From assembly GCF_000014785.1 (NCBI RefSeq), contig NC_008340.1:2910001-2942000 (forward strand): a stretch of DNA of 32,000 nt. The letters run 5' to 3'. How positions within the stretch are numbered: position 1 is the stretch's first letter; each line of letters opens with the position of its first letter. Under the pieces are notes generated by a model. That model was given only the letters and a program-made list of their open reading frames with translations. It was not told the DNA's origin and did no database searches. This document shows positions 5,361 to 24,897 of this stretch, piece by piece. Made by a program: the position numbers and the translations under genes. This DNA comes from Alkalilimnicola ehrlichii MLHE-1 (GTDB taxonomy: Bacteria > Pseudomonadota > Gammaproteobacteria > Nitrococcales > Halorhodospiraceae).

Positions 5361-7067
5361 ATGGCCGTGGCCTGGTCCAGGGCTCCCCGCCGGGGCCTGA
5401 TCGCCACGCTGCTCGACCCGCTGCGGCGGGTCGGGCCGTGGCGTTTGTTCGCCTTGGGCATGGGGACCCTGCTCTTCGTCCCCATCGCGGTGACCCTGGC
5501 CAGTTGGCTCACGCCGGACATGGAGGTCTGGCGCCACATCCAGCAGACCCTGTTAGCGGAGATCCTCGGCAACACCGTGATGCTGGTGCTGGGAGTGGGA
5601 TCCGGCGTGCTCTTCCTGGGGGTCAGCCTGGCCTGGCTGACGGCCCGCTGTGACTTCCCCGGCCGAGGCCTGTTCGACTGGGCACTGATCCTGCCCCTGG
5701 CCGTGCCCACCTATGTCCTGGCCTTCGTCTTTGTCGGCCTGTTCGAGTTCGCGGGGCCGGTGCAGAGCTTTTTGCGCGAGACCGTCTCCAGCGACCTGCG
5801 GCTGCCCTCTATCCGCTCCACCCCCGGGCTCATCCTGGTCATGAGCCTCGTGCTCTACCCCTATGTCTACATGCTCAGCCGGGCCGCCTTTCTCAGCCAG
5901 GGGACGGCCCCCATGGAGGCGGCACGGGTCCAGGGCCTGAGCGCCTGGGGCAGCTTTTTCCGGGTGGCGCTGCCCATGGCCCGGCCGGCCATCGCGGCCG
6001 GCACGGCACTGGCGCTGATGGAGACCCTGGCCGACTTCGGGGCGGTCTCGGTATTCAACTTCGAGACCTTCACCACCGCCATCTACCGAGCCTGGTTCGG
6101 TTATTACAGCCTTGCCGCGGCGGGCCAGTTGGCCGCCCTGCTGTTGCTGATCATCCTGCTCGGCCTGACCGCGGAGAAGGCCGCCCGGGGCCGCGCCCGT
6201 TTCGACCAGCGCCAGGCCGGCGGGGTCACCCGCATCCCCCTGCGTGGCTGGCGCGCCTGGGCGGCCACCGGCTTCGCCGCCAGCGTGCTGTTCCTGGGCT
6301 TTCTGCTGCCAGTGCTGCAACTGGTCATCTGGGGTTGGGGGCACCTGGCCGATTTCAACGAACGCTACTTGGAACTGGTGCTCAACACCCTCACCCTGGG
6401 GGCGGTCTCCGCCTTCATCACCGTCACCATCGCCCTGCTGCTTGCCTACGCGCGTCGTGTGCAGCCGGACTTCATCACCCGCCGCGCCGTCGGCGCCTCC
6501 ACTCTGGGGTACGCCCTGCCCGGCTCGGTGTTGGCGGTGGGGATCATGATCGTCTTCACCTGGCTCGACCACCGGGTGGCCGACCTGCTGGAGCCGCTGG
6601 TCGGGGATATCGGCGGCCAACTGCTCACCGGCAGTGTCTTCGCGCTGATCATCGCCTATGTCATGCGCTTCATGGCGGTGGCCTTCGGTGCGGTGGACAG
6701 TGCCCTCGAGCAGATCCGGCCCAGCTTGCGCGAGGCCGCTCGCAGCCTGGGCGCGCGGGATTGGGAGATCATCCGCCGCATCTACATCCCGGTGCTGCGG
6801 CCGGGTCTGATCACCGCGGCGCTGCTGGTCGGTGTCGATGTCATGAAGGAGATGCCCGCGACCCTGCTGCTCCGGCCCTTCGGCTGGGACACGCTAGCGG
6901 TGCGCATCTTCGAGTTCACCGTGGAGGGGCAGTGGGAGCGCGCCGCGCTGCCGGCGGTCACCCTGGTGGCCGTGGGCCTGATCCCGGTGATCTTCCTGGT
7001 CAGCCGGACGGTGCGCAAGCACCCGCGCAACCAGAAGCCGGCCGCCGCTGAAGCGCTCCAGACCTGA
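5361..7067 (+). CDS. Iron(III) ABC transporter permease, fused double-domain (FbpB/AfuB-like)
   Basis: 568-aa polytopic membrane protein with two MalFG-type permease halves. Each half has an EAA-like loop: MEAARVQGLSAWGSFFRVALPMARPAI and REAARSLGARDWEIIRRIYIPVLRPGL. It starts 5 nt after the binding-protein stop. Confidence 0.85.
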   Translation: MAVAWSRAPRRGLIATLLDPLRRVGPWRLFALGMGTLLFVPIAVTLASWLTPDMEVWRHIQQTLLAEILGNTVMLVLGVGSGVLFLGVSLAWLTARCDFPGRGLFDWALILPLAVPTYVLAFVFVGLFEFAGPVQSFLRETVSSDLRLPSIRSTPGLILVMSLVLYPYVYMLSRAAFLSQGTAPMEAARVQGLSAWGSFFRVALPMARPAIAAGTALALMETLADFGAVSVFNFETFTTAIYRAWFGYYSLAAAGQLAALLLLIILLGLTAEKAARGRARFDQRQAGGVTRIPLRGWRAWAATGFAASVLFLGFLLPVLQLVIWGWGHLADFNERYLELVLNTLTLGAVSAFITVTIALLLAYARRVQPDFITRRAVGASTLGYALPGSVLAVGIMIVFTWLDHRVADLLEPLVGDIGGQLLTGSVFALIIAYVMRFMAVAFGAVDSALEQIRPSLREAARSLGARDWEIIRRIYIPVLRPGLITAALLVGVDVMKEMPATLLLRPFGWDTLAVRIFEFTVEGQWERAALPAVTLVAVGLIPVIFLVSRTVRKHPRNQKPAAAEALQT

Positions 7068-7151
7068 GCCCCGCCCCCCTGTTATCCCGGGCGCGGTTGG
7101 CGCTATAGTGGTCCGACCACTGACAGAGCCGGACCAGCCGCAAGGGAGCCC

Positions 7152-8246
7152 ATGCAACGCACCCCGCTCTATCGCCGTCATCAGGAAGCCGGCGCCCGCC
7201 TGGTGGAATTTGCCGGCTGGCAGATGCCGCTGGATTACGGCTCCGCCCTGGCCGAACACCGCGCCGTGCGCGAGGACTGCGGCCTGTTCGACGTCTCCCA
7301 CATGGCCATCACCGATCTCGAGGGCCAGGGGGCCCGCGACGCCCTGCGCCTGATCCTCGCCGCCGATGTGGCCCGGCTCGACGAGGCCGCCCCCGGCAAG
7401 GCCCTCTACGGTTGCCTGCTGAATGAGGCCGGCGGCATCATCGACGACCTCATCGTCTTCCGCCGCGGCGCGGAACGCTACCGCATCGTCTCCAACGCCG
7501 CCACCCGGGGCAGCGTCCAGCGCTGGCTGGAGCGGCTCACTGCGGCCTTCGGCCTGCAGCCGGAGGCTCGTACCGACCTGGCAATGATCGCGCTGCAGGG
7601 GCCGGCCGCCCCCAGTCTCATCGAACAGCTGCCGGAGGCAGCCGCCGCCGTGGGCCTGGGCGCCTTCGAGGCCCTGGATGGGGAGCGGATCTTCGTCAGC
7701 CGCACCGGCTACACCGGCGAAGACGGCTTCGAACTGATCCTGCCCGGCCCCCGGGCCAGCCAAACCTGGGACCACCTGGTGGCCGCCGGCGCCCGACCCT
7801 GCGGGCTGGCGGCCCGGGACAGCCTGCGCCTGGAGGCGGGCCTGAACCTGAACGGCCAGGACATGACCCCGGAGACCACGCCGCTGGAGTGCGGCCTGGG
7901 CTGGACCGTGCACTGGACGCCGGAGGATCGTGACTTCATCGGCCGCCATCCGCTGGAGGCCCAACGCCGGGAGGGGGCGCCATGGTGCCGGCAGGGCCTG
8001 GTCCTGCGCGAGCGCGGCGTGCCCCGCCACGGGCATGCGGTGCTGGACGCCGCCGACCGGGTGATCGGTGAGGTCACCAGCGGCGGCTGGTCGCCGGTAT
8101 TGCAACGGGGCATTGCCCTGGCCCGGGTGCCCAACGGCACCGGGGGGCCGCTACGGGTCCGGGTCCGCGACCGCGCCCTGAGCGCCGAGCCGGTCCGGCC
8201 GCCCTTCGTCCGCAATGGCAAGCCGCGGGTGGACGTCCCCGACTAG
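7152..8246 (+). CDS. gcvT: Glycine cleavage system aminomethyltransferase (T protein)
   Basis: TPLY..H...GA.LV.FAGW.MPL.YGS...EH.AVR...[12 protein letters not shown]...[48 protein letters not shown]. Followed by gcvH. Confidence 0.92.
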
Positions 8247-8266
8247 CCCGCTATACAGCTAACAGG

Positions 8267-8288
8267 CAGGGCGGCCCGCACCGCCCTG
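8267..8288 (+). other. Intercistronic GC-rich hairpin between gcvT and gcvH (CAGGGCGG-cccgca-CCGCCCTG)
   Basis: Perfect 8-bp inverted repeat with a 6-nt loop, read directly from the sequence. No T-run follows. A possible processing/stability or partial attenuation element; function not established. Confidence 0.3.
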
Positions 8289-8324
8289 AAACGCCCTCTC
8301 ACAACCCAGGGAACGAACCAAGCC

Positions 8325-8717
8325 ATGACCCAGGTACCAGACAACCTCAAGTACAACCGCACCCACGAGTGGACCCGCTTGGAGGACGACGGCACGCTCA
8401 CCATCGGCATCACCGATCACGCCCAGAGCGAACTGGGCGATTTGGTGTTCGTGGAGACGCCCACGGTGGGGCGCCACTACGACGCCGAGGAGGCCTGCGC
8501 CGTGGTGGAATCGGTCAAGGCCGCCTCCGACATCTACGCGCCGGTGGGCGGCGAGGTGATCGAGGCCAATTCAGAGCTGCAGGACAGCCCGGAGCTGGTC
8601 AACACCGACCCCTACGGCGAGGGTTGGATCATGCGCATCCGCCCGGACGACAGCGACGACCTGGAGCAACTGCTGGACCCGGAGGACTACCAGGACCTGG
8701 TGGCCGACGAGGAGTAA
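8325..8717 (+). CDS. gcvH: Glycine cleavage system H protein (lipoyl carrier)
   Basis: LKY...HEW......G..T.GITDHAQ..LGD.VFVE.P.VG........[22 protein letters not shown]...PELVN.DPY.EGW. Contains the lipoyl-lysine motif ESVKA. 130 aa. Confidence 0.95.
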
Positions 8718-8722
8718 CGGGC

Positions 8723-10105
8723 GTGCCCTTTATCCCCCACACCGAGGCCGAGGTCCGCCGGATGCTGGAGGTCATCGGTGTCCGGCACCTGGACGCGCTG
8801 TTCGACGAGATCCCGGCGGCGCTGCGGGCTCCGCCGCCGCAGGGGGTGCCGGAGGGGCTACCGGAGATGGCGGTCCGGCGCATCGCCCGGCGGCGGGCGG
8901 CCCAGGACCGCCAACCGGTCTCTTTTCTCGGGGCCGGCTGCTACGAGCACCATATCCCCGCCGCCGTCTGGCAGATCGCCGCCCGCGGTGAGTTTTACAG
9001 CGCCTACACGCCCTACCAGGCCGAGGCCTCCCAGGGCACCCTGCAGGTCATCTACGAATTCCAGTCCATGCTCAGCGCCCTCACCGGCCTGGCGGTCAGC
9101 AACGCCTCGCTCTACGACGGCGCCACCGCCACCGCGGAGGCGGCGCTGATGGCCGTCCGCCAGCGCCGCCGTGACGCCGCGCATCGCGTGCTGGTGCCCC
9201 ACACCCTGCACCCGCTCTACCGCCGGGTGCTGAGCACCCTGCTGGCGCCCCAGGGCATCGAGCTGACGCTGCTGGACTACGACCCCGACCAGGGGCATCT
9301 GCCGGAGCACGCCCTGGAGGGGGTGAGCGGCGGCTTCGACGCCCTGCTGTTGCCGCAGCCCAATTTCCTCGGGGTGCTGGAGCCGGTGGACACCCTCACC
9401 CGCGCCGCCCAGGCCCGCGGTGCGCTGGTGATCGGGGTGGTCAACCCCATTGCCCTGGCCCGGCTGGCACCGCCCGGTGAGTGGGGCGAGGCCGGCGCCG
9501 ACATCGCCTGCGGCGAGGGGCAGCCCCTGGGCATCCCGATGAGTTCCGGTGGCCCCGGTTTCGGCTTTTTGACCTGCCGGCGCCCGCTTATGCGCCAGCT
9601 ACCGGGGCGGCTGGTGGGGCGGACCGTGGACCTGGACGGCAAGCCCGGCTACACCCTCACCCTGCAGGCGCGCGAGCAGCACATCCGCCGGGGCCGTGCC
9701 ACCTCCAACATCTGCACCAACCAGGGCCTGATGGCCACCGCCGCCACCCTCTACTTGGCCCTGCTGGGTCCCGACGGCCTGGAGCGGGTCGCCGACTGCT
9801 GCCTGGCCCGCACCCATGCCCTGGTGGAGGCCCTGACCGGCCTGCCGGGCGTGCAATCCGCGCTGCGCGGGCCACACTTTCATGAGGCCGTGCTGCGCCT
9901 GGACCGCCCGGTGGCCCCGGTGCTGCAGGCCCTGGAAGACCACGGCATCCTCGGCGGCCACGACCTGTCGGCGGACTATCCGGAACTGGGCAACGCCCTG
10001 CTGGTTTGCGCCACCGAGATGCGCGACGAGGTGGATATCGAGTACTACCGGGACAGCCTGGCCGCGGTGCTGAACACCCGGCCTGACCCCGTCCCCTCAC
10101 CATAA
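8723..10105 (+). CDS. gcvPA: Glycine dehydrogenase (decarboxylating) subunit 1 (P protein alpha)
   Basis: ORF 8369..10105 overlaps gcvH in another frame. It was trimmed to GTG 8723, giving (M)[18 protein letters not shown], the usual GcvPA N-terminus. Also FLGAG.Y.H.IPA.V......GEFY.AYTPYQ.E.SQG.LQ.I.E.Q, and GFG.L.....[33 protein letters not shown]. Confidence 0.92.
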
Positions 10106-10121
10106 GCGTAAGGAGAAGACC

Positions 10122-10622
<501 letters not shown>

Positions 10623-10701
10623 GGGCATCACGGTGGCGACGGGGCGCGCACCGCGTGCCCCCGTCCTTCGGCCGCCCCCCAACAGGCAGGAAACCGACCC
10701 G

Positions 10702-12168
10702 ATGCTGATCTTCGAACAGGCCCGCGAGGGCCGGCGCGCCGCCGCCCAGGCCCCTGAGCGTCCGACCCGGGTACCCGCACTGCCCGAGGCCTTCCGCCGG
10801 CGCAAGCGCCCCGCCCTGCCGGAGGTCTCGGAGCTACAGGCCGTGCGCCACTACACCCGGTTGTCGCAACTGAACTTCTCCATCGACACCCACTTTTACC
10901 CGCTCGGCTCCTGCACCATGAAGTACAACCCCCGCGGCTGCCACGCCGTGGCCAGCGAGCCGGGCTTTGCCGAGCGCCACCCGCTGGCCCCGTCCACCAC
11001 CGGCCAGGGGATGATGGCCTGCCTGCACGAATTGCAGGACTGGCTCACCGCGATCACCGGCATGGGTGATACCAGCCTGGCGGCCATGGCCGGCGCCCAG
11101 GGTGAGTTCTGCGGTGTAGCCATGATCATGGCCTGGCACGCCGGGCGCGGCGACCACCAGCGGAACGAGATCCTGGTGCCCGACGCCGCCCACGGCACCA
11201 ACCCGGCCACCGCCGCCCTCTGCGGCTGTACCGTACGCGAGATCCCCACGGGGCCGGACGGCGACGTGGACATGGGGGCCCTGCACGAGGCCTTGGGCCC
11301 GAGGACCGCCGGCATCATGCTCACCAATCCTTCCACGGTCGGCGTCTTTGAGCGGCGTATCCGCGAGATGGCGGACGCGGTGCACGCCGCCGGCGGGCTG
11401 CTCTATTACGACGGCGCCAACCTGAATGCCATCTTGGGCCGGGTCCGCCCCGGCGACATGGGCTTCGACGTCATGCACCTGAACCTGCACAAGACCTTCT
11501 CCACGCCCCACGGCGGCGGCGGGCCGGGGGCCGGGGCGGTCTGTGTCAGCGAGCGGCTGCGCCCCTACCTGCCGGTGCCGCAGGTGGCCCGCGAGCCGGA
11601 TGGCCGCTTCCGCTGGCTGCAGGAGGGCGACCGGCCGCACACCATCGGCCGGCTGTCCGCCTTCGGCGGCAACATCGGGGTGCTGCTGCGGGCCTGGGCC
11701 TACACCCGCATGCTGGGCCGTGAGGGCCTGCCCCGGGTGGCCGATTACGCCACCCTGAACGCCAACTACCTGATGGCGCGGCTGCAGGCGGAGGGGTTTC
11801 AGGTGGCCTACCCGGAGCGGCGCGCCAGCCACGAGTTCGTGCTCACGCTGAAATCGGAGGCCCGGGAGCTCGGGGTCACCGCCCTGGACTTCAGCAAGGC
11901 GCTGCTTGATCACGGCATCCACGCCCCTACCATGTACTTCCCGATGCTCATCCCCGAGTGCCTGCTGATCGAGCCCACCGAGACCGAGAGCTTGGCGGAG
12001 CTGGATGCCTTCGTGGCCGCCATGGTGGCCATCCGCGAGGCGGCCCGGCGTGACCCCGAGCAGGTGCGCGGGGCCCCCTATCGGCTGCCTGTGCGCCGGC
12101 TGGATGAGGTGCGCGCCGCCCGTCAGCCCGACCTGGCGTGGCGGCCGGAAGCGGCCCCTGACCCCTGA
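10702..12168 (+). CDS. gcvPB: Glycine dehydrogenase (decarboxylating) subunit 2 (P protein beta, PLP-binding)
   Basis: ORF 10534..12168 trimmed to ATG 10702 ([12 protein letters not shown]). [16 protein letters not shown]......[56 protein letters not shown] with the PLP-lysine in NLHKTF, and PTMYFP. Confidence 0.92.
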
Positions 12169-14639: not shown

Positions 14640-16031
14640 ATGAACGCCTGGTCCAGCACCCTGCTTGCCACCCTGCTCGCCACCGGCCCCGCGCTGACCG
14701 CCGCCGCCCCCCCGGCGCAGGAGAGCGGCGCCGACGACCGCGAAGCCCTCTCGATCACCGTCTACCAACGCGACCTGGCCCTGGTCCGCGAGCAACGGCG
14801 GCTGGAGCTGCCGGAGGACGGCGCCCGCGTCCAGTTCACCGGTCTGCCCGGGGCCCTGGACCCGGGCAGCCTGCACCTGCGCAGCGAGACACCGTTGCGG
14901 GCCAGCGGCCTGGACTGGACCACCGGTGAGCTGGACATCGACCGGCTGCTCACCGCCCGCCGCGGTCACACCCTGACGCTGGTGCATGATGCGAGCGGTC
15001 GCCGGATCACCGGCCGACTGCTGCACAGCGACGACCGGCGGGTGCTACTGGAGACCGACCACGGCGCCGAGACGGTACCCCTGAACGATGCCTGGCGGAT
15101 CCGTTTCGGCAGCCTGCCCGCCCACCTGCAGCCGCTGCCCGCCCTCACCCTCGACCTGACGCCGGACGAGGGCGGCGAGCAGCCGGTCGAACTGGCCTAT
15201 CTCACCGGCGGGCTCTCCTGGTCCGCCCGCCACACCGCCACCCTGGATGAGACGGGCGAAGCGCTCCGCCTGGAGTCCCTGGCCGCCATCGACAACCGCA
15301 GCGGCGGCGACTGGCCCCAGGCCCGGCTGCAGCTGCTGGCCGGCGACACCCACGGCGATGACCGCCCGGTGCAGCCCATGGCGCTGCGCAGCCAGGCCGC
15401 CGAGGCCGCTGCGCCGGAGCGGGAGGCCCTGGCCGGCTACCACCTCTATACCCTGCCAGACCCACTCACCCTGCGTGATGGCGAGACCCGACTGGCCACC
15501 CTGGCGGCATCGCGCACTGTGCCGGTGGAGCGCCAGTGGGTGAGCCGGGGACAGGCCGGGCGACAACTGGCGGAACGGCAGCCACAGGGCGTGACCGGCC
15601 GACTGGTCTTCGACAACGGCGACCCCACATCGGGGACGCCGATGCCGGCGGGCCCGGTCCAGGTCTACGGCCCCGACCGCCATGGGGAATTGCAGTACCT
15701 GGGTGAACAGCGCATCGGCCATACGCCGGCCGGACAGACCGTGCGGCTCGATATCGGCCGCAGTTTTGACGTCACCGCGGAACGTACCCCGGTGAGCTGG
15801 CGCCGGCTGGACGAGCGCGGCGGCTTCGAGGCCGAGTGGCACCTCAGGGTGGACAACGCCGGCGAGCAGGCCGTGACGGTGCAGCTGGAGGAAGAGCTGA
15901 ACGGCGACTGGCAGATCCTGGAGGAGAGCGAGGCGCACGAGCGGGTCTCGGCCCGGCTGGCGCGCTGGGCGTTGCAGGTACCCGCGGAGGGCCGGACGGA
16001 GCTGCGCTACCGGGTGGAAGTCCGCCGTTAG
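14640..16031 (+). CDS. Exported DUF4140/DUF4139-like protein (mucoidy-inhibitor MuiA-like family)
   Basis: Signal peptide MNAWSSTLLATLLATGPALTAAAP. The N-terminal block LSITVYQRDLALVREQRRLELPEDGARVQFTGLPGALDPGSLHLRS resembles DUF4140. The central and C-terminal blocks (YLTGGLSWSARHTATL, YHLYTLPDPLTLRDGETRLATL, ELRYRVEVR) resemble DUF4139. The family call is from memory of the domain pattern, not a search. Confidence 0.65.
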   Translation: MNAWSSTLLATLLATGPALTAAAPPAQESGADDREALSITVYQRDLALVREQRRLELPEDGARVQFTGLPGALDPGSLHLRSETPLRASGLDWTTGELDIDRLLTARRGHTLTLVHDASGRRITGRLLHSDDRRVLLETDHGAETVPLNDAWRIRFGSLPAHLQPLPALTLDLTPDEGGEQPVELAYLTGGLSWSARHTATLDETGEALRLESLAAIDNRSGGDWPQARLQLLAGDTHGDDRPVQPMALRSQAAEAAAPEREALAGYHLYTLPDPLTLRDGETRLATLAASRTVPVERQWVSRGQAGRQLAERQPQGVTGRLVFDNGDPTSGTPMPAGPVQVYGPDRHGELQYLGEQRIGHTPAGQTVRLDIGRSFDVTAERTPVSWRRLDERGGFEAEWHLRVDNAGEQAVTVQLEEELNGDWQILEESEAHERVSARLARWALQVPAEGRTELRYRVEVRR

Positions 16032-16109
16032 CCGCGTTAACCTGCGGTGTTCTGCCGCAGGGGCGCCCTGCCGGTGTCCCGGCCCCTCCACAGCACACCG
16101 CGGGTAGCC

Positions 16110-19100
16110 ATGAACAGTCTTGACCAACACCTGGAAAGCGCCGGCCTCACCTTCGCCCGACTCCAGACCCCGGCGGGTCTGGCCGAGCTGGACCGCCGAT
16201 TCCTGGACTGGCTGCGCGAGCGCGACGGCGAGCTGTGCGAACGGCTGCTCGCCCACCGTGACCGGCAGCCGGCCACCACCCCCGACTACAGCCGGCTGCT
16301 GCTGGCCGTGGCGCCCCACCTGGAGCAGTGGCTGGCGGGGCTGTTCGGCATCACCGAGGCGCTGACCCGCCGCCGGGCCACGCTCGTCGCCGACGATGTG
16401 ATCATCGACTTCCGCCGCGAGTTCGTGCAGAAACGCGCACGCAGGGCCCGTCCGGAGGCTGACTTCACCACCCTCGACGAGGCGCTCCGCGAGGCCCTCC
16501 GCCAGGCCCGCCTGCCCACCGAGCAGGACGAGGAACTGGCGGTGGCCCGCTACGGCCTCAACCTGCTGGGTGACGAGGCAGGCCACGCCGAGGCCATCCG
16601 TGGCCTCGCCGAGTGGTGCGCCCGCGCCCTGGAGACCCCGGAGGGGCGTGCGCGGGTGGCCGGCTGGACCGCCTTCCGCCTGCCGCGCAAGGTGGACCAC
16701 GCCCGCCTGGTGCCGCTGCGCCGGGCCGACCTGCCCGGTGCCGCCCGGCTGGCGGCCGCCACAGAACACCACCGCAGCCGCGACGGTTTCAGCCTCACCG
16801 ACCCGCGCATGTCCGCCCGCGATGTGCACGCCGAGACGCACTACTGCGTGCTCTGCCACGAGCACGCCGGCGACTTCTGCTCCCGCGGTTTCCCGGAGAA
16901 GAAGAAGCAACCGGAACTGGGCTACCGGGTGGACCCGCTGGGCAACACCCTCACCGGCTGCCCGCTGGAGGAGAAGATCAGCGAGATGCACGCCCTGCGC
17001 CGGGAGGGGCGAGTGATCGCCGCCCTGGCCATGATCATGGTGGACAACCCCATGGTCCCGGCCACCGGCCACCGGATCTGCAACGACTGCATGAAGGCAT
17101 GCATCTACCAGAAGCAGGATCCGGTGAACATCCCCCAGGCCGAGACCGGGGTGCTCACCGAGGTGCTGGACCTGCCCTGGGGGGTCGAACTCTACCACCT
17201 GCTGGCCCGCTGGAACCCGCTGCGTCCCCAGCAGTACCTGGAGCAGCCCCACAACGGCCGCCGGGTGCTGGTGGCCGGGATGGGCCCGGCCGGTTTCACC
17301 ATGGCCCACCACCTCACCATGGCCGGCTGCAAGGTGGTCGGCATCGATGGGCTCAAGGTCGAGCCCCTGCCCGAGGACATCCTCCGCGGCCCGGTGCGCG
17401 ACTGGGACCAGTTGGCCGAGGACCTGGACGAGCGCACCCTGCTCGGCTTCGGCGGGGTGGCCGAGTACGGCATCACGGTGCGCTGGGACAAGAACTTCCT
17501 CAAGCTCATCTACCTCACCCTGGCCCGGCGCCAGACCTTCAGCGTCCACGGCGGCGTGCGCCTGGGCGGCACCCTCACCCTGGAGGACGCCTGGGAACAG
17601 GGCTTTGACCACGTCTGCGTCGCCACCGGCGCCGGCTACCCGCGGGTCATCCCCATGGGCAACTCGCTCGCCCGCGGCATGCGCCAGGCCAACGACTTCC
17701 TGATGGCCCTGCAACTCACCGGCGCCGGCAAGATGAGCTCCATCGCCAACCTCCAGGTACGCCTGCCGGCGGTGGTCATCGGTGGCGGGCTCACCGGCGT
17801 GGACACCGCCACCGAGGTGCAGGCCTACTACATCCGCCAAGTGGAAAAGGTGCTCTGGCGCTACGAGACCCTGGTGGCCGAACGCGGCGAGGCGCGCGTG
17901 CGCGACCGGTTGAACGACGAGGATCAGGCCATCCTGGATGAGTTCCTGGCCCACGGCCGAGCGGCCCGCGATGAGCGCGCGAAGGCCGCCGCCGAGGGCC
18001 GGGAACCCGACTTTATCCCGCTGATCCAGAAGTGGGGCGGGGTGACCATCGCCTACCGCAAGGGCATGAACGCCTCGCCCGCCTACACCCGCAACCACGA
18101 GGAGTTGCGGGCGGCCACCGAGGAGGGGCTCTACTACGCCGAGGGCCTGGACCCCATCCACGCCCGGCTGGACGAGCACCACCACATCCGCAGCCTGGTT
18201 TGCCGACAGATGAAGCACGATGCCGGCCGCTGGTTCACTACCAGCCACGAGGTGGAACTGCCCGCCCGCTCGGTCTTCGTGGCCGCCGGCACCGTACCCA
18301 ACACCATCTACGAACACGAGCACCCGGGCAGCCTGGAGCTGGAGGGCAACCACTACCGGCCCCACGCCTTTCACAACGAGGGCCTGCAACCGGTGCAGAC
18401 CGCCGAGCACGTCAAGTCGCCGGAGGCGGGTCCCTTCACCGGCTACCGCCATCAGGGGCGCACGGTCACCTTCCTGGGCGACACCCACCCGGTCTACCAG
18501 GGCAGCGTGGTGAGGGCCATCGCCTCGGCCCACGACAGCTGGCCGGAGGTGATGAAGGCCCTGGACAGCCTGCCGGCTCGGGTGCCCAACCCGGACCCCC
18601 ACGCCTTCCAGCGCCGTGTCGCCGACCTGCTGAGCGCGGAGGTGGTCTCGGTGAACCGGGACAACCCGGCGGTCACCGAGATCTGGGTGCGCGCCCCGGC
18701 TGCCGCCCGGCGTTTCCGCCCCGGGCAATTCTTCCGGCTGCAGACCTACGAGAGCCACTCCCCGCTGGTGGCCGGCACCCGGCTCCAGGTCCCGCTGCTC
18801 ACCGTCTCGGGCACCGGCATCGACGGCGACTGCATCCGCCTGATGGTCTTCCAGTGGGGGGCCGGCCCGCGCATCGCCGGCCGGCTCCGGCCCGGTGACC
18901 CGGTGGTACTGATGGGCCCCACCGGTGCCCCCACCGATATCCCCAGCGGCGAGACGGTGCTGGTGGTGGCCGGGCGCTGGGGCGCGGCGGTGATGCACGA
19001 CATCGGCTCAGCCCTGCGCGCCGCCGGCAACCGGGTGCTCTACCTGGCCGCCTTCGGCTCGCCCCGCGATGTGGACCACCAGGGGGAGCTGGAGGCCGGT

Positions 19101-19604: not shown

Positions 19605-19816
19605 CGGACGGCGGTGCGCCGGCGGGGGCGGATTACGGTTCAGGCCGACTTTTGCCCACCGAGCAACGCAGGGAAAAATCGGATGAAGCGCGTGCCTGTT
19701 CGAGCGAAGCGAGTTCACGCGCGCCGATTTTTCCCGAGTAGCGCAGGGTACCCGAAGGGTGCGCAATCGGAGGCCTGAACCGTAATCCGCCCCCGCCGGC
19801 GCACCGCCGTCCGTCA
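19602..19816. repeat. 215-bp nested palindromic element: 45-bp perfect inverted repeats flanking a 125-bp core that contains a second, imperfect inverted repeat (MITE/REP-like, or a giant 3' hairpin)
   Basis: 19602..19646 (TGACGGACGGCGGTGCGCCGGCGGGGGCGGATTACGGTTCAGGCC) is the exact reverse complement of 19772..19816. Inner repeat: GGGAAAAATCGG (19671..19682) plus GCGCGTG (19688..19694) pairs with CACGCGC (19716..19722) plus CCGATTTTTCCC (19724..19735). The first three nucleotides of the left arm are the TGA stop of the upstream 1164-aa gene. Confidence 0.85.
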
Positions 19817-19872
19817 CCCCCTATTTCCTACGGTGTCAGCGGGCTTGAAAAGCCGGCCGGAAAAGCGCAGGC

Positions 19873-19881
19873 TGATACAAT
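19873..19881 (+). promoter_or_regulatory. Candidate extended -10 promoter element (TGATACAAT) for the DUF2892 gene
   Basis: TG-n-TACAAT is 39 nt upstream of ATG 19920. A TTGAAA at about 19845 is spaced too far away to serve as a -35. Pattern match only. Confidence 0.25.
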
Positions 19882-19919
19882 CTTTTAATTGAATACATCC
19901 CCCAACTGGAGGTCTCCGT

Positions 19920-20117
19920 ATGAACCTGAAACAGAACATGGGCACCGTGGACCGTGCCCTCCGCGCCATCGTCGGCGTCATCCTGCTGGCGCTGGTCTTC
20001 GTCGGTCCGCAGACCCCTTGGGGCCTGATCGGTATCATCCCGCTGGCCACCGCCGCCATCGGCTGGTGCCCCGTCTACCTGCCCCTGGGCCTCAGCACCT
20101 GCGGCAAGAAGACCTGA
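19920..20117 (+). CDS. Small DUF2892 (YgaP-C-terminal-like) two-TM membrane protein
   Basis: MNLKQNMGTVDRALRAIVGVILLALVF...GLIGIIPLATAAIGWCPVYLPLGLSTC. The motif N.G..DR..R...G.......... GL.G..PL.T...G.CP.Y...G..T is the DUF2892 signature. Good SD (GGAGG). Confidence 0.75.
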   Translation: MNLKQNMGTVDRALRAIVGVILLALVFVGPQTPWGLIGIIPLATAAIGWCPVYLPLGLSTCGKKT

Positions 20118-20210: not shown

Positions 20211-20654
20211 TCACCAGCGTTTGTAGGGCAGGAACTTCCCGTTCAGGGTGAGCACCACCCGATCGCCCTTCGGGTCCTCGACCTTGTCCACCTCCATGGT
20301 GAAGTCGATGGCACTCATGATGCCGTCACCGAACTTCTCCTGGATCACCTGCTTCAGGGTCTCGCCGTAGACCATCACCACCTCGTTCAGACGATAGACC
20401 AGCGGGTCGGAGAGCATCTCTTGGTAGCGCTGGCCCTTCTCCGGGTAGACCTGCAACGCCGCCCCCACCTCACCGGGCAGCCCCAGCACGCCGCAGAGCT
20501 TTTCGGCCGGATCGGCCAGCAGGCTGTTCTCTCCCAGGCAGGCGGAACAGATGAAGACCGGCGACAGGCCCGTGGCCTCCCCGATGGCCTCCCAGCTCAT
20601 GCCTTTGAACTGCTTGGCGGCCAGGATCGCTTCACGCATTTCTGCCTTGTTCAT
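20211..20654 (-). CDS. cynS: Cyanase (cyanate hydratase)
   Basis: ORF 20211..20678 trimmed to ATG 20654 (SD GAGGA 8 nt upstream), giving 147 aa, the same size as cyanobacterial CynS. The C-terminal catalytic half is nearly invariant: DPLVYRLNEVVMVYGETLKQVIQEKFGDGIMSAIDFTMEVDKVEDPKGDRVVLTLNGKFLPYKRW. Confidence 0.93.
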   Translation of the reverse strand: MNKAEMREAILAAKQFKGMSWEAIGEATGLSPVFICSACLGENSLLADPAEKLCGVLGLPGEVGAALQVYPEKGQRYQEMLSDPLVYRLNEVVMVYGETLKQVIQEKFGDGIMSAIDFTMEVDKVEDPKGDRVVLTLNGKFLPYKRW

Positions 20655-20718
20655 GGTTGTCATCCTCTTGAAGGTCAAAGGTTAGGGCACACGGCTACGC
20701 CGCGCTCAAGGTAGTACT

Positions 20719-20736
20719 CACCTGCCGTGGCAGGTG
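20719..20736 (-). other. Hairpin immediately after the cynD stop (CACCTGCC-ac-GGCAGGTG on the minus strand)
   Basis: Perfect 8+8 inverted repeat seen in the 86-nt cynD-cynS spacer. No U-run follows. A possible mRNA-stability or processing element. Confidence 0.3.
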
Positions 20737-20740
20737 CGGT

Positions 20741-21613
20741 TCAGCCATTCACAACCCGCTTTCCGGGCTCCGGTTCCTCGCCGACATTGACCTCGGCCGC
20801 CTTGCGGGTGCCGCTCTGCCCCTGCAGTTCCCGGGAGCGCCGGACCAGGAAGTCGACCAAGTGGTTGCGGGTCGGGTAGTAGTTGGGGTGCTCGATGATG
20901 GAGGTCCGGTCCCGCGGCCGGGGGATATCCACCTTCACCGCCTCGGCCACGTGGGCCTCCGGGCCGTTGGTCATCAGCAGGATGCGGTCGGAGAGCAGGA
21001 TGGCCTCGTCCACGTCGTGGGTGATCATGAACACCGTCTGCCCGGAGTCGCTCCAGATCCGCAGCAACTCGTCCTGGATGGTGCCCCGGGTCAGGGCGTC
21101 CAGGGCGCCGAAGGGCTCGTCCATGAGCAGCAGCTTGGGTTCGATGGCGAAGGCGCGGGCGATACCCACCCGCTGGCGCATGCCGCCGGAAAGCTCCGCC
21201 GGGCGCCGGGTCTCACTGCCCTCCAGCCCCACGAGCCGGATGTACTTCATGGCGTGCTCACGCACCTGCTGACGGCTCCAGCCCGGCCAGCGGGCCTGGG
21301 TGGCAAACACCACGTTGGCCAGGGCGCTCTTCCAGGGCAGCAGGCTGTGGTTCTGGAAGATCACCCCCCGGTCCAGGCTCGGGCCCTTCACTTCCTTGCC
21401 GTCCATGAAGACGTTGCCGTCGGTGGCCTCGTCCAGGCCCGCCAGCACGTTCAGGATGGTGGACTTGCCGCAGCCGGAGTGGCCGATGACACAGATGAAC
21501 TCGCCCTTCTCGATGTTGAAGTCCACCCCGTCAAAGACGGTAAGCGGGTCCCCGCCGCGGGCAGCGGGGAAGGTCTTCTTGAGGCTTTCCACCTCGAGGA
21601 ATGCATGACTCAT
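20741..21613 (-). CDS. cynD: ABC transporter ATP-binding protein of the nitrate/cyanate/bicarbonate (NrtD/CynD/SsuB) family
   Basis: ORF trimmed to ATG 21613 (SD GGGAGAG). Walker A GHSGCGKST, Q-loop, signature LSGGMRQR, Walker B LLLMDEPFGALD and H-loop ITHD. The gene symbol is assigned from operon context with cynS, not from substrate evidence. Confidence 0.88.
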   Translation of the reverse strand: MSHAFLEVESLKKTFPAARGGDPLTVFDGVDFNIEKGEFICVIGHSGCGKSTILNVLAGLDEATDGNVFMDGKEVKGPSLDRGVIFQNHSLLPWKSALANVVFATQARWPGWSRQQVREHAMKYIRLVGLEGSETRRPAELSGGMRQRVGIARAFAIEPKLLLMDEPFGALDALTRGTIQDELLRIWSDSGQTVFMITHDVDEAILLSDRILLMTNGPEAHVAEAVKVDIPRPRDRTSIIEHPNYYPTRNHLVDFLVRRSRELQGQSGTRKAAEVNVGEEPEPGKRVVNG

Positions 21614-21631
21614 AGGGTCTCTCCCGGGGCA

Positions 21632-21654
21632 GCCCCCGGCGCTCGGCCGGGGGC
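21632..21654 (-). other. GC-rich hairpin in the 96-nt cynB-cynD spacer (GCCCCCGG-7 nt-CCGGGGGC)
   Basis: Perfect 8-bp inverted repeat read from the sequence, ending about 18 nt before the cynD SD. Function unknown. Confidence 0.3.
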
Positions 21655-21709
21655 GCATTGCCCACAGTGACGTTGTACGCGGATGCCTGAATTCAGTGAA
21701 TGCACGGGC

Positions 21710-22549
21710 TCATTCGGCGTACTGCACGGCCCGGGTGGCCATGGCCAGCATGCTGTCCAGGATCATGCCGACGATCCCGATCATGAGCACCGCGAAGATC
21801 ACGCTGGTCAGATCCAGGTTGTTCCACTGGTTCCAGACGAAGTAGCCGACGCCGGTTCCACCGACGAGCATCTCGGCGGCCACGATGACCAGCCAGGAGA
21901 TCCCGATGGCAATGCGCATGCCGGTGAGGATGGTGGGTGCGGCGGCCGGCAGGATCACCGAGAAGGCGGTTTTCACCGGCGAGAGCTGCAGCGTGCGCGC
22001 CACGTTCAGCAGGTCCTTCTTGACCCCCGCCACCCCGAAGGCGGTATTCACCAGGATGGGCCAGACGGAACAGATGAAGATGACGAAGATCGCCGACTGC
22101 ACCGAGTCCTGGATGATGTAGAGCGCCAGGGGCATCCAGGCCAGCGGCGAGATGGGCCGCAGCACCTGGATGTAGGGGTTAAGCGCCTTCTGCATCACCG
22201 GCGACATGCCCACCACGAAGCCCAGCGGGATGGCCACCAGCACCGCCAGCCCGTAGCCGGCCAGCACCCGGCCTATGGAGTGGGCCAGTTGGGTGCCGAT
22301 GCCCTTGTCGTTGCTGCCCCGGTCGTAGAAGGGGTCAGAGAGCTCCGTCACCGCCAGGCTCAACACCTCCGACGGCGCCGGGATGTTGCTGCTGGAAGCG
22401 CTGCCCGCGCCGGTGAGCATTTCGTACTCGCTGAGCTCCTCCTGCCCGGGAACCAGGGTGCCACCCACGCTCCACTCCCAGATGCCCAATATCACCACGA
22501 GCATGGCGAGGCTGAGGACGACGGCCTTGAGGTTCTCGCGACTCAACAT
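21710..22549 (-). CDS. cynB: ABC transporter permease of the NrtB/CynB family
   Basis: 279-aa, 6-7 TM protein. Family EAA loop: NVARTLQLSPVKTAFSVILPAAAPTILTGMRIAIGISW. ATG 22549 lies 3 nt after the cynA stop, with GGAGG inside the cynA 3' end. Confidence 0.88.
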   Translation of the reverse strand: MLSRENLKAVVLSLAMLVVILGIWEWSVGGTLVPGQEELSEYEMLTGAGSASSSNIPAPSEVLSLAVTELSDPFYDRGSNDKGIGTQLAHSIGRVLAGYGLAVLVAIPLGFVVGMSPVMQKALNPYIQVLRPISPLAWMPLALYIIQDSVQSAIFVIFICSVWPILVNTAFGVAGVKKDLLNVARTLQLSPVKTAFSVILPAAAPTILTGMRIAIGISWLVIVAAEMLVGGTGVGYFVWNQWNNLDLTSVIFAVLMIGIVGMILDSMLAMATRAVQYAE

Positions 22550-22552
22550 GGC

Positions 22553-23980
22553 TTACGACCTCCGTATCTCGAAGCTGTCCACGTAGGCCTCCGGCTGCTC
22601 AGGGTCGAACGCCTTGCCCATGATCATGTGGCTCTTGTAGGTGACCTCCGGCGGCTCGTAGCCCAGCTCGCGCATGAGTTTGCCGCAGTCGGTGGCCAGG
22701 TAGACCTCTTCGGCGATGCCCTTGTAGTCCACGTCGCCGTCCACGTAACCCCAGCGCTTCATCTGGGTCATGATCCACACCGCCATGGAGTGCCAGGGGA
22801 AGGGGTCGAAGTCGATCCGGTCCGGGTCCTCCTTGACGTTGCCCAGCCCGTCGGCGTAGCGGCCAGTCAGCACCTGCTGAATCACCGATACCGGCTGGTT
22901 CAGGTAGTTGCGCGGGGCGATGGCCTCGGAGATCTCGGCCCGGTTCTCGTGCTCGGAGGCATAGTGGGTGGCGTCCACGATGGCCTTGAACAGGGCACCG
23001 AAGCTGTTCGGGTACTCCTCGGCAAAGGCGCGGCTGGTGGCGAAGGCGCAGCAGGGGTGGCCGTCCCAGATCTCCTTGGTGAGCAGGTGGATGAAACCCA
23101 CCTCCTCCCAGACCGCCCGCTGGTTGAAGGGGTCGGGGGCCAGGTAGCCGTCCACGTTGCCGGCGCGCAGGTTGGCCACCATCTCCGGCGGCGGCAGCAC
23201 GCGAATCTGGATATCCCGGTCCGGGTCCAGGCCGTGCTCGGCGACGTAGTAGCGCAGCAGGAAGTTGTGCATGGAGAAGTCGAAGGGCACGGCGAAGCGG
23301 AAGCCCTTCCACTGGCTGGGGTCGCGCTTGTCCTTGTGCTTGTTGTGCAGGGTGATGGCCTGGCCGTTGATGTTCTCCACCGCCGGCATGATGAAGGGCA
23401 TGCTCGACGAGCCGGTGCCCATGGTCATGGCCAGGGGCATGGGGGTGAGCATGTGGGAGGCGTCGTACTCCCGGTTCATGGACATATCCCGGGCCACCGC
23501 CCAGCCGGCGGTGGAGCGCAGGTCCACGTTCAGCCCGTAGCGCTCGTAGAAGCCCATGGGGTGGGCCATGATGATGGGCGTGGCGCAGGTGATGGGCACA
23601 AAGCCCACGGTCAGGTCGCGCTTCTCGGGGTCACCCAGGTTGTCCTTGAGCATGGCCTTGGCCGCATCCAGCGGGAATATGGAGCCCACCGCCGCAGCAA
23701 AGGTGCCGGCGCCCACCGCCTTCAGGAAGAAACGCCGGCTGGCGTCGTGGTGACCGAACAGGGCACGCACCACCGCGCTCTCCACGGCCCGGTCGAACAT
23801 GGCCTCTTTGTCGACGCCCTGCTTCGCGGCCAGCATCTGGTTGGCGTCCTGCTCCGCTGGGGCGGCCCCGTGGTCGTGCTGGGCATGTTCGCCGCCACCG
23901 CAGCTGGAGCAGGTGCAGCCCGCTCCGTGGCGCAGGTCCGCCTCCGGGTTGAACGGGTCGTTGAGTGATCGGTTGCTCAT
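22553..23980 (-). CDS. cynA: NrtA/CmpA/CynA-family periplasmic substrate-binding protein with a twin-arginine signal and an unusual 80-aa Cys/His-rich N-terminal extension
   Basis: Tat motif SRRFFLKAVGAGTFAAAVG at residues 81-99. Mature-domain blocks typical of NrtA-like proteins: LTVGFVPITCATPIIMA, GW.V.RD, GQAIT, FAVPF..SMHN.LLRYY.AEHGLDPD.DIQ....PP.EMVANL..GN.DG.L.PDPFNQRAV, HPCC.FA. The start at 23980 is backed by a strong SD (GGGAGG, 8 nt) directly after the leader terminator. Confidence 0.88.
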   Translation of the reverse strand: MSNRSLNDPFNPEADLRHGAGCTCSSCGGGEHAQHDHGAAPAEQDANQMLAAKQGVDKEAMFDRAVESAVVRALFGHHDASRRFFLKAVGAGTFAAAVGSIFPLDAAKAMLKDNLGDPEKRDLTVGFVPITCATPIIMAHPMGFYERYGLNVDLRSTAGWAVARDMSMNREYDASHMLTPMPLAMTMGTGSSSMPFIMPAVENINGQAITLHNKHKDKRDPSQWKGFRFAVPFDFSMHNFLLRYYVAEHGLDPDRDIQIRVLPPPEMVANLRAGNVDGYLAPDPFNQRAVWEEVGFIHLLTKEIWDGHPCCAFATSRAFAEEYPNSFGALFKAIVDATHYASEHENRAEISEAIAPRNYLNQPVSVIQQVLTGRYADGLGNVKEDPDRIDFDPFPWHSMAVWIMTQMKRWGYVDGDVDYKGIAEEVYLATDCGKLMRELGYEPPEVTYKSHMIMGKAFDPEQPEAYVDSFEIRRS

Positions 23981-24003
23981 GGTGCTTACCTCCCGCCAAT
24001 AAC

Positions 24004-24048
24004 AAAAAAGGGCGCGGCATCGGCCGGTAGCCGACGCCAGACGCCCTT
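24004..24048 (-). terminator. Strong intrinsic terminator inside the cynA 5' leader (the regulated attenuator)
   Basis: Minus strand: AAGGGCG-tct-GGCGTCGGC-taccg-GCCGATGCC-g-CGCCCTT-TTTT. The two helices of 7 bp and 9 bp (one G-U pair) are followed by a run of six T. It ends about 20 nt before the cynA SD/ATG. Confidence 0.8.
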
Positions 24049-24094
24049 GCCTGGAAAGCCTGTTTCAGTGCCTGCCACCACCCGCCGTTGGGTG
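24037..24094 (-). promoter_or_regulatory. ANTAR-type RNA target: two hairpins with A-x-x-G hexaloops, the second overlapping the terminator 5' arm (antiterminator)
   Basis: Minus strand hairpin 1, 24094..24079: CACCC-AACGGC-GGGTG. Hairpin 2, 24054..24037: CCAGGC-AAGGGC-GTCTGG (one G-U pair). Both loops are 6 nt, with A at position 1 and G at position 4. The linker is 24 nt. The loop and 3' arm of hairpin 2 (AAGGGCGTCTGG) are the same nucleotides as the terminator 5' arm. Confidence 0.75.
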
Positions 24095-24135
24095 TCGCGC
24101 TGCGACGGACAGGGCACTGATGTCAGTGATGTATA

Positions 24136-24151
24136 TTCAATTCGCGTGCCA
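24136..24151 (-). promoter_or_regulatory. Sigma-54 (-24/-12)-like promoter for the cyn operon (TGGCAC-GCGAA-TTGAA)
   Basis: On the minus strand there is a perfect -24 element TGGCAC(G) and correct 5-nt spacing to TTG. The -12 reads TTGA instead of the consensus TTGC. It lies about 40 nt upstream of ANTAR hairpin 1. Confidence 0.45.
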
Positions 24152-24215
24152 GATTTGGCTTTTACCGTTGAAACAACGTGTTACGAAATAGCTTGACACC
24201 CCGTGGCGGGGCAAC

Positions 24216-24232
24216 TGCACGGCATCGGTGCG
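24216..24232. promoter_or_regulatory. Possible NtrC-type enhancer half-site pair (GCAC-N7-GTGC)
   Basis: CGCACCGATGCCGTGCA (minus strand) has the spacing of the NtrC consensus TGCACCA-N3-TGGTGCA and matches about 10 of 14 specified positions by hand. It is about 70-80 bp upstream of the sigma-54-like promoter, just after the nasT-like stop. Weak evidence. Confidence 0.25.
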
Positions 24233-24250
24233 GGCATGCACTGCCGCGGG

Positions 24251-24832
24251 TCAACCGTGGGCCAGGCCCGCGTCGACGAGCAGCCTGCGCGCCAGACGCG
24301 GAATAGGCTGCCCGCAGTTCATGGCGCGGCGGCGCAGCAGGTGGTAGGCATCGGCCTCGCCCAGCCCCTCGCGCTCCATCAGCAGGCACTTGGCCTGGTG
24401 CACATCACGCTGCTCGGCAAGCTGGCGGCGAGTGTCCGCCAGCTCGCGGGTCAACCCCTGAAAGCGCTCGTACTGCCGGATGGCCAGGCGGATCGCCCCT
24501 TGCACCCCTTCGCGCGGCACGCCCCCCACGGCGTAGGCACTGAGCCCCGCCGCCGCGGCTGTGCTCATCAATTCCGGGTCGTGATGAACGGAGCCGTTCA
24601 TCACCGGCCCCGGGTACCGCCCCCCGCGGCTGCACAGCCCCTCCAGGGTGTCGCGTTTGCCCGATCCCGCTTCGGTGATGATCACCTCCGGCTCCTCGTC
24701 GAGCACCCGCTGGTAAAGGTCATCCGCGCCCTGCACGGTGGCCACCACGGTAAAGCCCGCCACCTGCAGTGACTCCTCGAGCCAGGCCGAACGCTCCGGC
24801 GAATCATCGACCAGCATGACTTTGGTGACCAT
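24251..24832 (-). CDS. nasT: NasT/AmiR-type two-domain regulator: receiver-like domain plus ANTAR RNA-binding antiterminator domain
   Basis: ATG 24832 (SD GGAG 6 nt upstream) was preferred over the track's TTG at 24838. The N-terminus VMLVDDSPER...EVIITEAGSGKRDTLEGL is receiver-like. The C-terminus LTRELADTRRQLAEQRDVHQAKCLLMEREGLGEADAYHLLRRRAMNCGQPIPRLARRLL is the ANTAR helix bundle (AKG.LM......E..AY..LR..AM). Confidence 0.88.
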   Translation of the reverse strand: MVTKVMLVDDSPERSAWLEESLQVAGFTVVATVQGADDLYQRVLDEEPEVIITEAGSGKRDTLEGLCSRGGRYPGPVMNGSVHHDPELMSTAAAAGLSAYAVGGVPREGVQGAIRLAIRQYERFQGLTRELADTRRQLAEQRDVHQAKCLLMEREGLGEADAYHLLRRRAMNCGQPIPRLARRLLVDAGLAHG

Positions 24833-24881: not shown

Positions 24882-24897
24882 TACAAGGTGCGTGCCA
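24882..24897 (-). promoter_or_regulatory. Second sigma-54-like element (TGGCAC-GCACC-TTGTA) upstream of the nasT-like gene
   Basis: Same TGGCACGC -24 box and spacing as the element at 24136..24151. The -12 reads TTGT. It is about 50 nt upstream of ATG 24832. Pattern match only. Confidence 0.3.

Follow-up and report, generated by a model that had tools for sequence, protein, structure and literature searches.

A predicted NasT-type ANTAR antitermination leader upstream of a cyanate uptake and cyanase operon in Alkalilimnicola ehrlichii MLHE-1

In Alkalilimnicola ehrlichii MLHE-1 a gene for a NasT-like protein with an ANTAR domain is followed by the operon cynA-cynB-cynD-cynS, which encodes a predicted cyanate transporter and a cyanase. 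The question raised by this locus is whether the leader RNA between the regulator gene and cynA is the switch by which the one controls the other. We analysed a stretch of 32,000 nucleotides (nt) of contig NC_008340.1 (positions 2,910,001 to 2,942,000 of the forward strand), referred to as the window, and all positions given for this genome are positions within it. An initial annotation had read the leader as a dual-hexaloop ANTAR antitermination leader. Our analysis supports this reading by the features of the published motif, the conservation of nine leaders, the covariation of their helices and the nasF-like loops. It is highly probable that the leader is a transcription attenuator of the ANTAR (NasT/NasR) type which gates the cyanate uptake and cyanase operon, as predicted from the sequences compared here.

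The coordinates and sequences of all elements were taken by direct reading of the minus strand (Table 1). The two hairpins of the initial annotation, here called P1 and P2, were reproduced base for base, including the linker of 24 nt between them and the two 6-nt loops, each with an A in first and a G in fourth place (A1/G4). The stem of P2 consists of six pairs, one of them G-U. The terminator that follows has a stem of 8 + 10 pairs with a 2-nt bulge (24048..24008) and a T-run (24009..24004), and the distance from this run, U6 in the RNA, to the ATG of cynA (23980) is 23 nt. Its folding energy corresponds to z = -5.2 with 0 of 200 shuffled sequences as stable, and it was also picked up by a simple consensus terminator scan. 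The loop and 3' arm of P2, together 12 nt, lie completely within the 5' arm of the terminator. The earlier statement that P2 and the terminator are mutually exclusive is thus borne out, with 12 shared nt and -31.9 kcal/mol for the terminator versus -7.6 kcal/mol for P2. For the chance test we defined the pattern as two hairpins with A..G hexaloops and stems of 4 base pairs (bp) or more, a linker of 3-40 nt and T5 within 60 nt. Across both strands of the window it occurs at one site, which is this leader, while 0.01 sites were expected from first-order Markov simulations.

The initial annotation had also placed an ANTAR-domain gene immediately upstream. We confirmed this with Pfam, where the encoded protein matches the ANTAR profile over positions 2-54 of 54 (E = 7.3e-15). 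The gene ends ∼200 nt upstream of the terminator. Among the structures in the PDB the protein aligns with Rv1626 (1S8N, E = 1.2e-10, residues 4-187) and also over its full length with EutV (6WSH). AmiR and NasR align to its ANTAR part, in the case of NasR (4AKK) over the ANTAR domain only.

Close relatives of the regulator are few, with eight in an index of 5.8 billion proteins. In the GTDB genomes 322 NasT-like genes were retrieved with the regulator and the best 80 of the 322 were fetched. The contigs of the relatives together with the GTDB scan gave nine distinct leaders of the cyanate type, from uncultured Ectothiorhodospiraceae, Aquisalimonas and similar organisms (individual loci are labelled L001, L003 and so on). 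Their regulators are 44-97% identical to that of the window and their genomic neighbourhoods differ. The order of the locus is the regulator gene, a gap of 200-400 nt and cynA-cynB-cynD-cynS wherever the contig extends that far; five relatives have contigs that span the operon and show the full gene order, and L087 and L008 agree to the end of the contig. The P1 loop reads A-N-N-G-N-C in 9/9 leaders with CCC-ANNGNC-GGG invariant. The P2 loop is AAGGGC in five leaders, AGGGGT in one, AACGGC in one and GAAGGC in two, such that G4 is present in 9/9 and A1 in 7/9. The stems measure 3-5 bp for P1 and 3-6 bp for P2, and the spacing between the two hairpins is 24-29 nt. In all nine leaders a terminator of -26 to -45 kcal/mol engulfs the entire loop and 3' arm of P2, with a U-run of 5-6 (3 in L017).

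P1 had been described as a hairpin of its own, with a possible long-range pairing around it. Its sequence is as described. However, P1 is not free-standing but forms one arm of a conserved three-way junction, and the pairing proposed around it was seen in the minimum free energy (MFE) fold and covaries in relatives. The long-range helix P0 pairs 24120..24108 with 24078..24065 and encloses P1 as well as a side hairpin Px (GUCGC-AGC-GCGAC, 24106..24094). The arrangement P0[Px,P1] is the MFE structure in 7/9 leaders; L001 and L005 keep P0 only and their inner arms fold otherwise. P0 pairs in 9/9 leaders despite differing sequences, with the arms CAGUGCC/GGCACUG in the window, AUCCGC/GCGGAU in L001, CCCGCUC/GAGCGGG in L017, GCUGCCGU/ACGGCAGC in L003 and ACCGGUC/GGACCGGU in L008. 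For the P2 stem we observed CCAGGC/GUCUGG versus CAUGGC/GUCAUG, i.e. two compensatory changes. Over the alignment of the nine leaders 78% of the cells are paired compared to at most 47% with the partners slid, 10 pairs are changed on both sides and the observed covariation score was reached by no shuffle. Nucleotide conservation is limited to the hexaloops and their closing pairs, with free variation in the Px loop and at the junction.

A search of the other NasT-like loci with a model built from the nine cyanate-type leaders (R1) gave 16 further matches at E ≤ 0.05 between NasT-like genes and the adjoining nitrate-transporter or nas genes, among them matches in Zoogloea, Nevskia, Hydrocarboniphaga and Rhodocyclaceae. 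As the same RNA is found beside NasT-like nitrate genes, the cyanate leader is, at the level of sequence, one branch of a broad NasT/NasR-type leader family. The alignment of the resulting 25 NasT-associated leaders consists of R1 matches fitted to the model and is thus biased toward the structure. Here 81% of the cells are paired compared to at most 40% with the partners slid, the covariation score is 0.435 compared to at most 0.089, and double changes occur in 20/23 pairs, including 5/6 pairs of P2. After realignment to the model the register of P0 stayed off for the subclade of the window and its pairing was undercounted at 59%; we verified P0 by reading every sequence directly. Px is lost in several related NasT leaders that retain P1 and P2.

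The link between cyanase and NasT-type control takes more than one form. In L062 (labelled Verrucomicrobia, 5798..8221) and L073 (a Nevskia metagenome-assembled genome, MAG, 5786..8371) a NasT-like gene is followed directly by an NrtA-like gene and a cyanase. Next to this cluster an R1 leader with E ∼1e-7 heads a divergent operon and follows a canonical TGGCAC-N5-TTGC box. The NrtA-like copy has no twin-arginine motif in L062 and is hence NasS-like; in L073 it has one at residue 31. Another Nevskia MAG (L026 6001..7148) carries two tandem NasT-like ANTAR genes, 39% and 35% identical to that of the window, followed by a leader match, NrtABC-type genes and a cyanase.

The locus was then compared to the known systems. 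One close system is NasT-NasS of Pseudomonas and Azotobacter with the NalA leader of nirBD/nasAB: it has the same regulator of ∼190 amino acids (aa) with a receiver-like and an ANTAR domain, a promoter of the sigma-54/NtrC type, two A1/G4 hexaloops and then an intrinsic terminator. In the NalA leader of P. putida, which is driven by NtrC and RpoN, A1 and G4 are needed in both hexaloops (PMC10783516). The nas operons are under dual control by NtrC/RpoN initiation and antitermination, and NasT is sequestered by the cytoplasmic NrtA-like NasS until nitrate binds (PMC10783516). The cargo differs, nitrate/nitrite reductase in these operons and cynABDS in the window. Furthermore nasS lies beside nasT there, whereas the only NMT1_2 gene of the window is cynA, and the regulator of the window is at most 44% identical to the fetched nitrate-type NasT-like proteins and has Glu at the phospho-acceptor position. 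The loops resemble those of Klebsiella oxytoca nasF: AAUGGC in P1 and GGAU-AAAGGC-GUCC for P2 compared to AACGGC and AAGGGC-GUC in the window, which is almost identical (Ramesh et al. 2012, Fig. S1). Both are nitrogen-assimilation operons with NtrC/sigma-54 control and antitermination, as predicted for the window. Unlike in nasF, P1 of the window is embedded in a three-way junction. The eut/EutV-EutW system of Enterococcus faecalis follows the same logic with a dual hexaloop and P2 and terminator mutually exclusive, but EutV is a phosphorylated response regulator working across a linker of 5-12 nt, whereas the regulator of the window has no phospho-Asp and the linker measures 24-29 nt. NasR is a one-component protein with NIT and ANTAR domains and in this respect differs from the receiver-like plus ANTAR regulator found here.

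The cyn operons known so far are controlled by DNA-binding activators. The cynR-cynTSX genes of E. coli and the NtcA-dependent cynABDS of cyanobacteria are under the DNA-binding activators CynR and NtcA, respectively. The cynFABDS operon of Pseudomonas pseudoalcaligenes shares the cargo with the window (ABC-type cyanate transporter and cyanase), a sigma-54 promoter upstream of cynA and repression by ammonium (PMC6627978). Its control is exerted by CynF, a DNA-binding sigma-54 activator (PMC6627978), whereas for the window an RNA-binding antiterminator is predicted.

We also identified a putative promoter of the leader, which the initial annotation did not contain. By a consensus match only, the leader is predicted to be driven by a promoter of the sigma-54/NtrC type, with a transcription start near 24125 and ∼5 nt before P0 as estimated from the -24/-12 spacing with GG at -24. 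The motif TGGCAC-N5-TTG occurs 2 times in the window compared to 0.27 expected, and the other copy lies ∼65 nt upstream of the ANTAR gene. An equivalent -24/-12 box (TGGCAC-N5-TTGC-like) is present 169-183 nt upstream of the cynA ATG in 9/9 leaders. The other cyn-type loci also show a GGCAC/GGCAT-N5-TTGC-like box 45-65 nt upstream of the ANTAR start (L001, L003, L005, L008, L011, L017 and L087), although the copy in L017 is degenerate (AGCAC). Two NtrC-like sites are centred 94 and 73 bp upstream of the -24 element and score 9/12 and 10/12 against the NtrC consensus TGCACC-N5-GGTGCA. The NtrC-like core match is not significant on its own in the window, with 8 matches compared to 6 expected at one mismatch. 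We retained the sites because their position is conserved: a site of at least 10/12 is found 70-140 bp upstream of the sigma-54 box in 9/9 leaders, as a pair ∼21 bp apart in six of them. Since the ANTAR gene itself lies behind a sigma-54-type box, these matches suggest a feed-forward arrangement in which regulator and target would both be switched on by nitrogen limitation.

Two further features were seen around the promoter. Between the NtrC-like sites and the sigma-54 box lies a G+C-rich hairpin (CCCCG-CCA-CGGGG, 24187..24199, minus strand) with no T-run, which is also found in L089. The inverted repeat CACTGA-nn-TCAGTG (24128..24115), to which the initial annotation had drawn attention, is present. 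We rejected it as a functional RNA element: L087 and the closest relative, L089 (regulator 97% identical to that of the window), have an altered form of the repeat, its loop measures 2 nt and its left arm does not extend downstream beyond the predicted +1.

From these elements the following mechanism can be proposed. When nitrogen is limiting, transcription would be started near 24125 by sigma-54 polymerase together with an NtrC-type activator, judging from the promoter and enhancer consensus. The nascent RNA would fold the P0/Px/P1 junction first and present the P1 hexaloop AACGGC, as folding and covariation indicate, and the P2 hexaloop hairpin could form ∼24 nt after P1. In the unbound RNA the terminator should displace P2 and transcription would stop at U6, and the energies suggest OFF as the default state. 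The NasT-like protein would bind the A1/G4 hexaloops of P1 and P2 and keep P2 closed past the U-run, in which case cynABDS would be expressed. The binding step is proposed by analogy with the mechanism of EutV, NasR, AmiR and NasT. The RNA, the protein and the logic belong to a well-known class, and the differences are confined to the cargo and the missing sensor.

Table 1. Predicted elements and genes of the cyn locus (positions within the window).
Feature	Positions	Strand	Details
NasT-like regulator gene, 193 aa	24251..24832	-	receiver-like N-terminal domain and C-terminal ANTAR domain
Predicted sigma-54-type promoter of ANTAR gene	24883..24897	-	TGGCAC-N5-TTGT, ∼65 nt upstream of start
Two NtrC-like enhancer half-palindromes	24216..24253	-	TGACCCGCGGCAGTGCA 24253..24237, CGCACCGATGCCGTGCA 24232..24216
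Predicted sigma-54-type promoter of leader	24137..24151	-	TGGCAC-GCGAA-TTGA, consensus match
Three-way junction P0/Px/P1	24065..24120	-	MFE folds and pairing in relatives
P1 hexaloop hairpin (recruitment hairpin)	24079..24094	-	CACCC-AACGGC-GGGUG, 5 bp, -7.0 kcal/mol
P2 hexaloop hairpin (antiterminator hairpin)	24037..24054	-	CCAGGC-AAGGGC-GUCUGG, -7.6 kcal/mol
Intrinsic terminator	24004..24048	-	18-pair bulged stem and U6, -31.9 kcal/mol
Shine-Dalgarno GGGAGG (23994..23989) and cynA start codon (23980..23978)	23978..23994	-	start codon and N-terminal residues conserved in homologues
Regulated operon cynA-cynB-cynD-cynS	20211..23980	-	Pfam and NCBIfam
cynA, NrtA-type binding protein	23980..22553	-	NMT1_2, 1.7e-90
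cynB, NrtB-type permease	22549..21710	-	ntrB above NCBIfam cutoff
cynD, NrtC/D-type ATPase	21658..20741	-	ntrCD above NCBIfam cutoff
cynS, cyanase	20678..20211	-	TIGR00673 and NF002773 above cutoffs

The label cynABDS is reasonable and rests on the cyanase encoded in the same operon; cyanate as the substrate of the transporter is predicted. With Pfam and NCBIfam no nitrate/nitrite reductase was found in the cynA-cynB-cynD-cyanase operon. CynA carries a twin-arginine (Tat) export motif, and we noted a conserved N-terminal extension of ∼60 aa in front of it (23980..23650, minus strand, first ∼110 codons). The extension reads M-SNKSL-DPFNPE-DL-HGAGCxCxxC, a variable linker and D-EA--DRxxESAVVRAxF--HDxSRR. 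The twin-arginine motif of CynA is located at residue 72-82 with an AKA cleavage-like site at ∼residue 108, compared to mostly residue 8-31 for the motif of the nitrate-type NrtA proteins beside NasT-like genes. The same extension was seen in L001 (6872..), L003 (6864..), L005 (6874..), L008 (2266..), L011 (6883..), L017 (1411..) and L087 (1983..), with the Cys motif missing in L017. Downstream of cynS follow a small open reading frame (19814..20059, minus strand) and a very large one of ∼1,164-1,317 aa (15045..18998, minus strand). The labels YgaP-like_TM for the small frame and RP005_N with Pyr_redox_2 for the large frame come from the gene calls of L089 by position, and the small frame has no Pfam match. 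A set of glycine-cleavage genes (GcvT, two-subunit GcvP) is located at 7152..12168 (plus strand); no glycine riboswitch or other Rfam family was found in the whole window at the gathering threshold.

Comparison with the published ANTAR-target motif supports the ANTAR reading, although some points speak against it. The motif asks for at least 3 bp per stem, A1/G4 hexaloops and a variable linker, and the best candidates overlap a terminator (Ramesh et al. 2012, PMC3369931). The window contains two tandem hairpins with stems of at least 3 bp and A1/G4 hexaloops, P2 overlaps the terminator, and the ANTAR gene is nearby with this linkage kept in all cyn-type loci. Several observations weigh on the other side. 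The P2 loop begins with G rather than A in L001 and L005 (GAAGGC), and the P2 stem is merely 3-4 bp long in five relatives. A model built from the six published eut seeds only (R2; nasF and amiE were left out due to a register mismatch in MAFFT) has its best match in the window at 24093..24039 (minus strand) and in the correct P1/P2 register, yet reaches only 9.5 bits and E = 1.4. The inner stem of the terminator does not keep a single register, and its covariation by fixed columns is weak because of these shifts; we thus compared the terminators by folding each sequence. We see no sensor partner for the regulator, and apart from cynA the window does not contain an NMT1_2 gene. Finally, the P1-P2 spacing of 24-29 nt exceeds the 5-12 nt tolerated by EutV (PMC3369931; PMC8934654), and lengthening the spacing in eut abolishes the action of EutV. 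The linker was left variable in the published search model, so the short spacing belongs to EutV and not to the ANTAR-target family as such. P0 sequesters ∼12-14 nt of the P1-P2 linker, about half of it, and in the structural model this may restore the proximity of P1 and P2. The initial annotation had also proposed a search with an Rfam covariance model for ANTAR targets. In Rfam 15 cmscan returned no matching family for the region (E ≤ 10), the whole window (gathering threshold) or 12 related loci, the best match being a chance hit of ctRNA_pGA1 on the terminator (E = 2.1). As Rfam does not hold any matching family, this search is uninformative.

The missing sensor leads to the alternative that survives best. 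The leader may be a true ANTAR target served by an unregulated antiterminator, so that the operon would follow nitrogen limitation only, through NtrC/sigma-54 feed-forward, and would not respond to cyanate. The sigma-54-type promoters on both the ANTAR gene and the leader are in line with this, and so is the phospho-acceptor position of the regulator. Here Glu54 (codon 24671..24673, minus strand) replaces Asp, and the cyanate-type regulators have Glu with the exception of L017, which has Ala. For the 87 matches in the fetched loci, which include some duplicates, we counted Asp in 59, and several have Gln, Gly or Ser. The motif S-P/G-x-RDTLE directly after this position is almost invariant across the NasT-like family. 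A special role of Glu54 as a phosphomimetic was considered and downgraded: D, E, Q, G, S and A all occur at this position in NasT-like proteins, and because of this variability we regard the domain as a pseudo-receiver and Glu54 as no meaningful phosphomimetic.

The gene neighbourhoods bear on the same question. A NasS-like gene is absent between the regulator and the leader in all cyn-type loci and none is adjacent to them, as the feed-forward alternative would have it. Among the loci L012-L086, those of Salinisphaera, Arhodomonas and Halofilum have a NasS-like gene, whose position ranges from an overlap with the regulator gene to several hundred nt further downstream. Most betaproteobacterial loci have a NasT-like gene and a gap of 200-400 nt, often with an R1 match; past the gap come NrtB, NrtD and a Tat-exported NrtA, and no NasS is adjacent. 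NasT without adjacent NasS is thus common and not peculiar to the cyanate clade. On the other hand, known NasT proteins are restrained by a partner (PMC10783516), and in characterised cyn operons cyanate acts as an inducer in addition to the repression by ammonium (P. pseudoalcaligenes, PMC6627978). The sensor may also be encoded elsewhere in the genome, and such an unlinked sensor is equally possible as feed-forward by nitrogen limitation. Overall we consider an antiterminator that ignores cyanate a possible but rather unlikely outcome. A cyanate-responsive ANTAR circuit with a novel mode of sensing is less likely still and would be a surprise. In this case the Tat-exported pre-CynA or its N-terminal peptide would take the role of NasS: pre-CynA, folded in the cytoplasm as a Tat substrate, would report the status of cyanate or of the transporter to the antiterminator. 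What points to it is that the NasT-like regulator always travels with the long-extension CynA (HGAGCxCxxC ... DRxxESAVVRAxF).

The remaining alternatives question the attenuator itself. The hairpin and T-run could be a plain terminator of the ANTAR gene transcript that insulates cynA, with the A..G hexaloops being incidental. The structure is indeed located ∼200 nt past the ANTAR stop codon, there is no other T-rich terminator after this gene, and it would block read-through from upstream in any case. However, in 9/9 loci a conserved sigma-54 box separates the hairpins from the stop codon, the hexaloops and their overlap with the terminator are kept down to 44% identity of the regulator and also in nitrate-type loci, and the expected 0.01 chance occurrences per window make incidental loops hard to accept. 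We thus regard a plain terminator as very improbable. The same low standing applies to a switch acting mainly on translation, in which GCUUUCC 5' of P2 would pair with the Shine-Dalgarno stretch GGGAGGU and mask it. Such pairing is part of the MFE structure of the full leader, and for some ANTAR targets translation is the probable level of control (Ramesh et al. 2012, PMC3369931). Nevertheless the U-rich stretch required for it is missing in L003, L011, L008 and L017, i.e. in 4/9 leaders, and we rejected the pairing as a conserved feature, whereas the terminator with its U-run is conserved throughout. Least likely of all is that the P0/Px/P1 junction is a small-molecule aptamer (e.g. for cyanate or a nitrogen metabolite) of a protein-independent riboswitch: a covarying three-way junction just before a terminator is a common riboswitch layout and no sensor protein is visible for the ANTAR regulator, but conservation in the hexaloops and closing pairs only is as expected for ANTAR recognition, the junction and the Px loop are variable, several related NasT leaders lack Px, P2 and not the junction overlaps the terminator, and Rfam gave no match.

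For the ANTAR attenuator as the preferred reading, our literature search did not find any link of ANTAR or NasT to cyanate or cyanase. The practical value of the finding lies mainly in the annotation of haloalkaliphilic Ectothiorhodospiraceae-like genomes. The comparative set comprises nine cyanate-type leaders and the 16 further R1 matches beside NasT-like genes, and the leader alignment could seed the family that Rfam lacks. For NasT-type leaders it places the P1 hexaloop on a covarying long-range helix or three-way junction, and this arrangement may explain why a spacing of 24-29 nt is tolerated here compared to the 5-12 nt of EutV. The pathways gated by ANTAR proteins so far are those for amidase, ethanolamine and nitrate/nitrite as well as, by prediction, nitrogenase and glutamate synthase. 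With the leader described here the uptake and detoxification of cyanate would be added to the nitrogen pathways under ANTAR antitermination.

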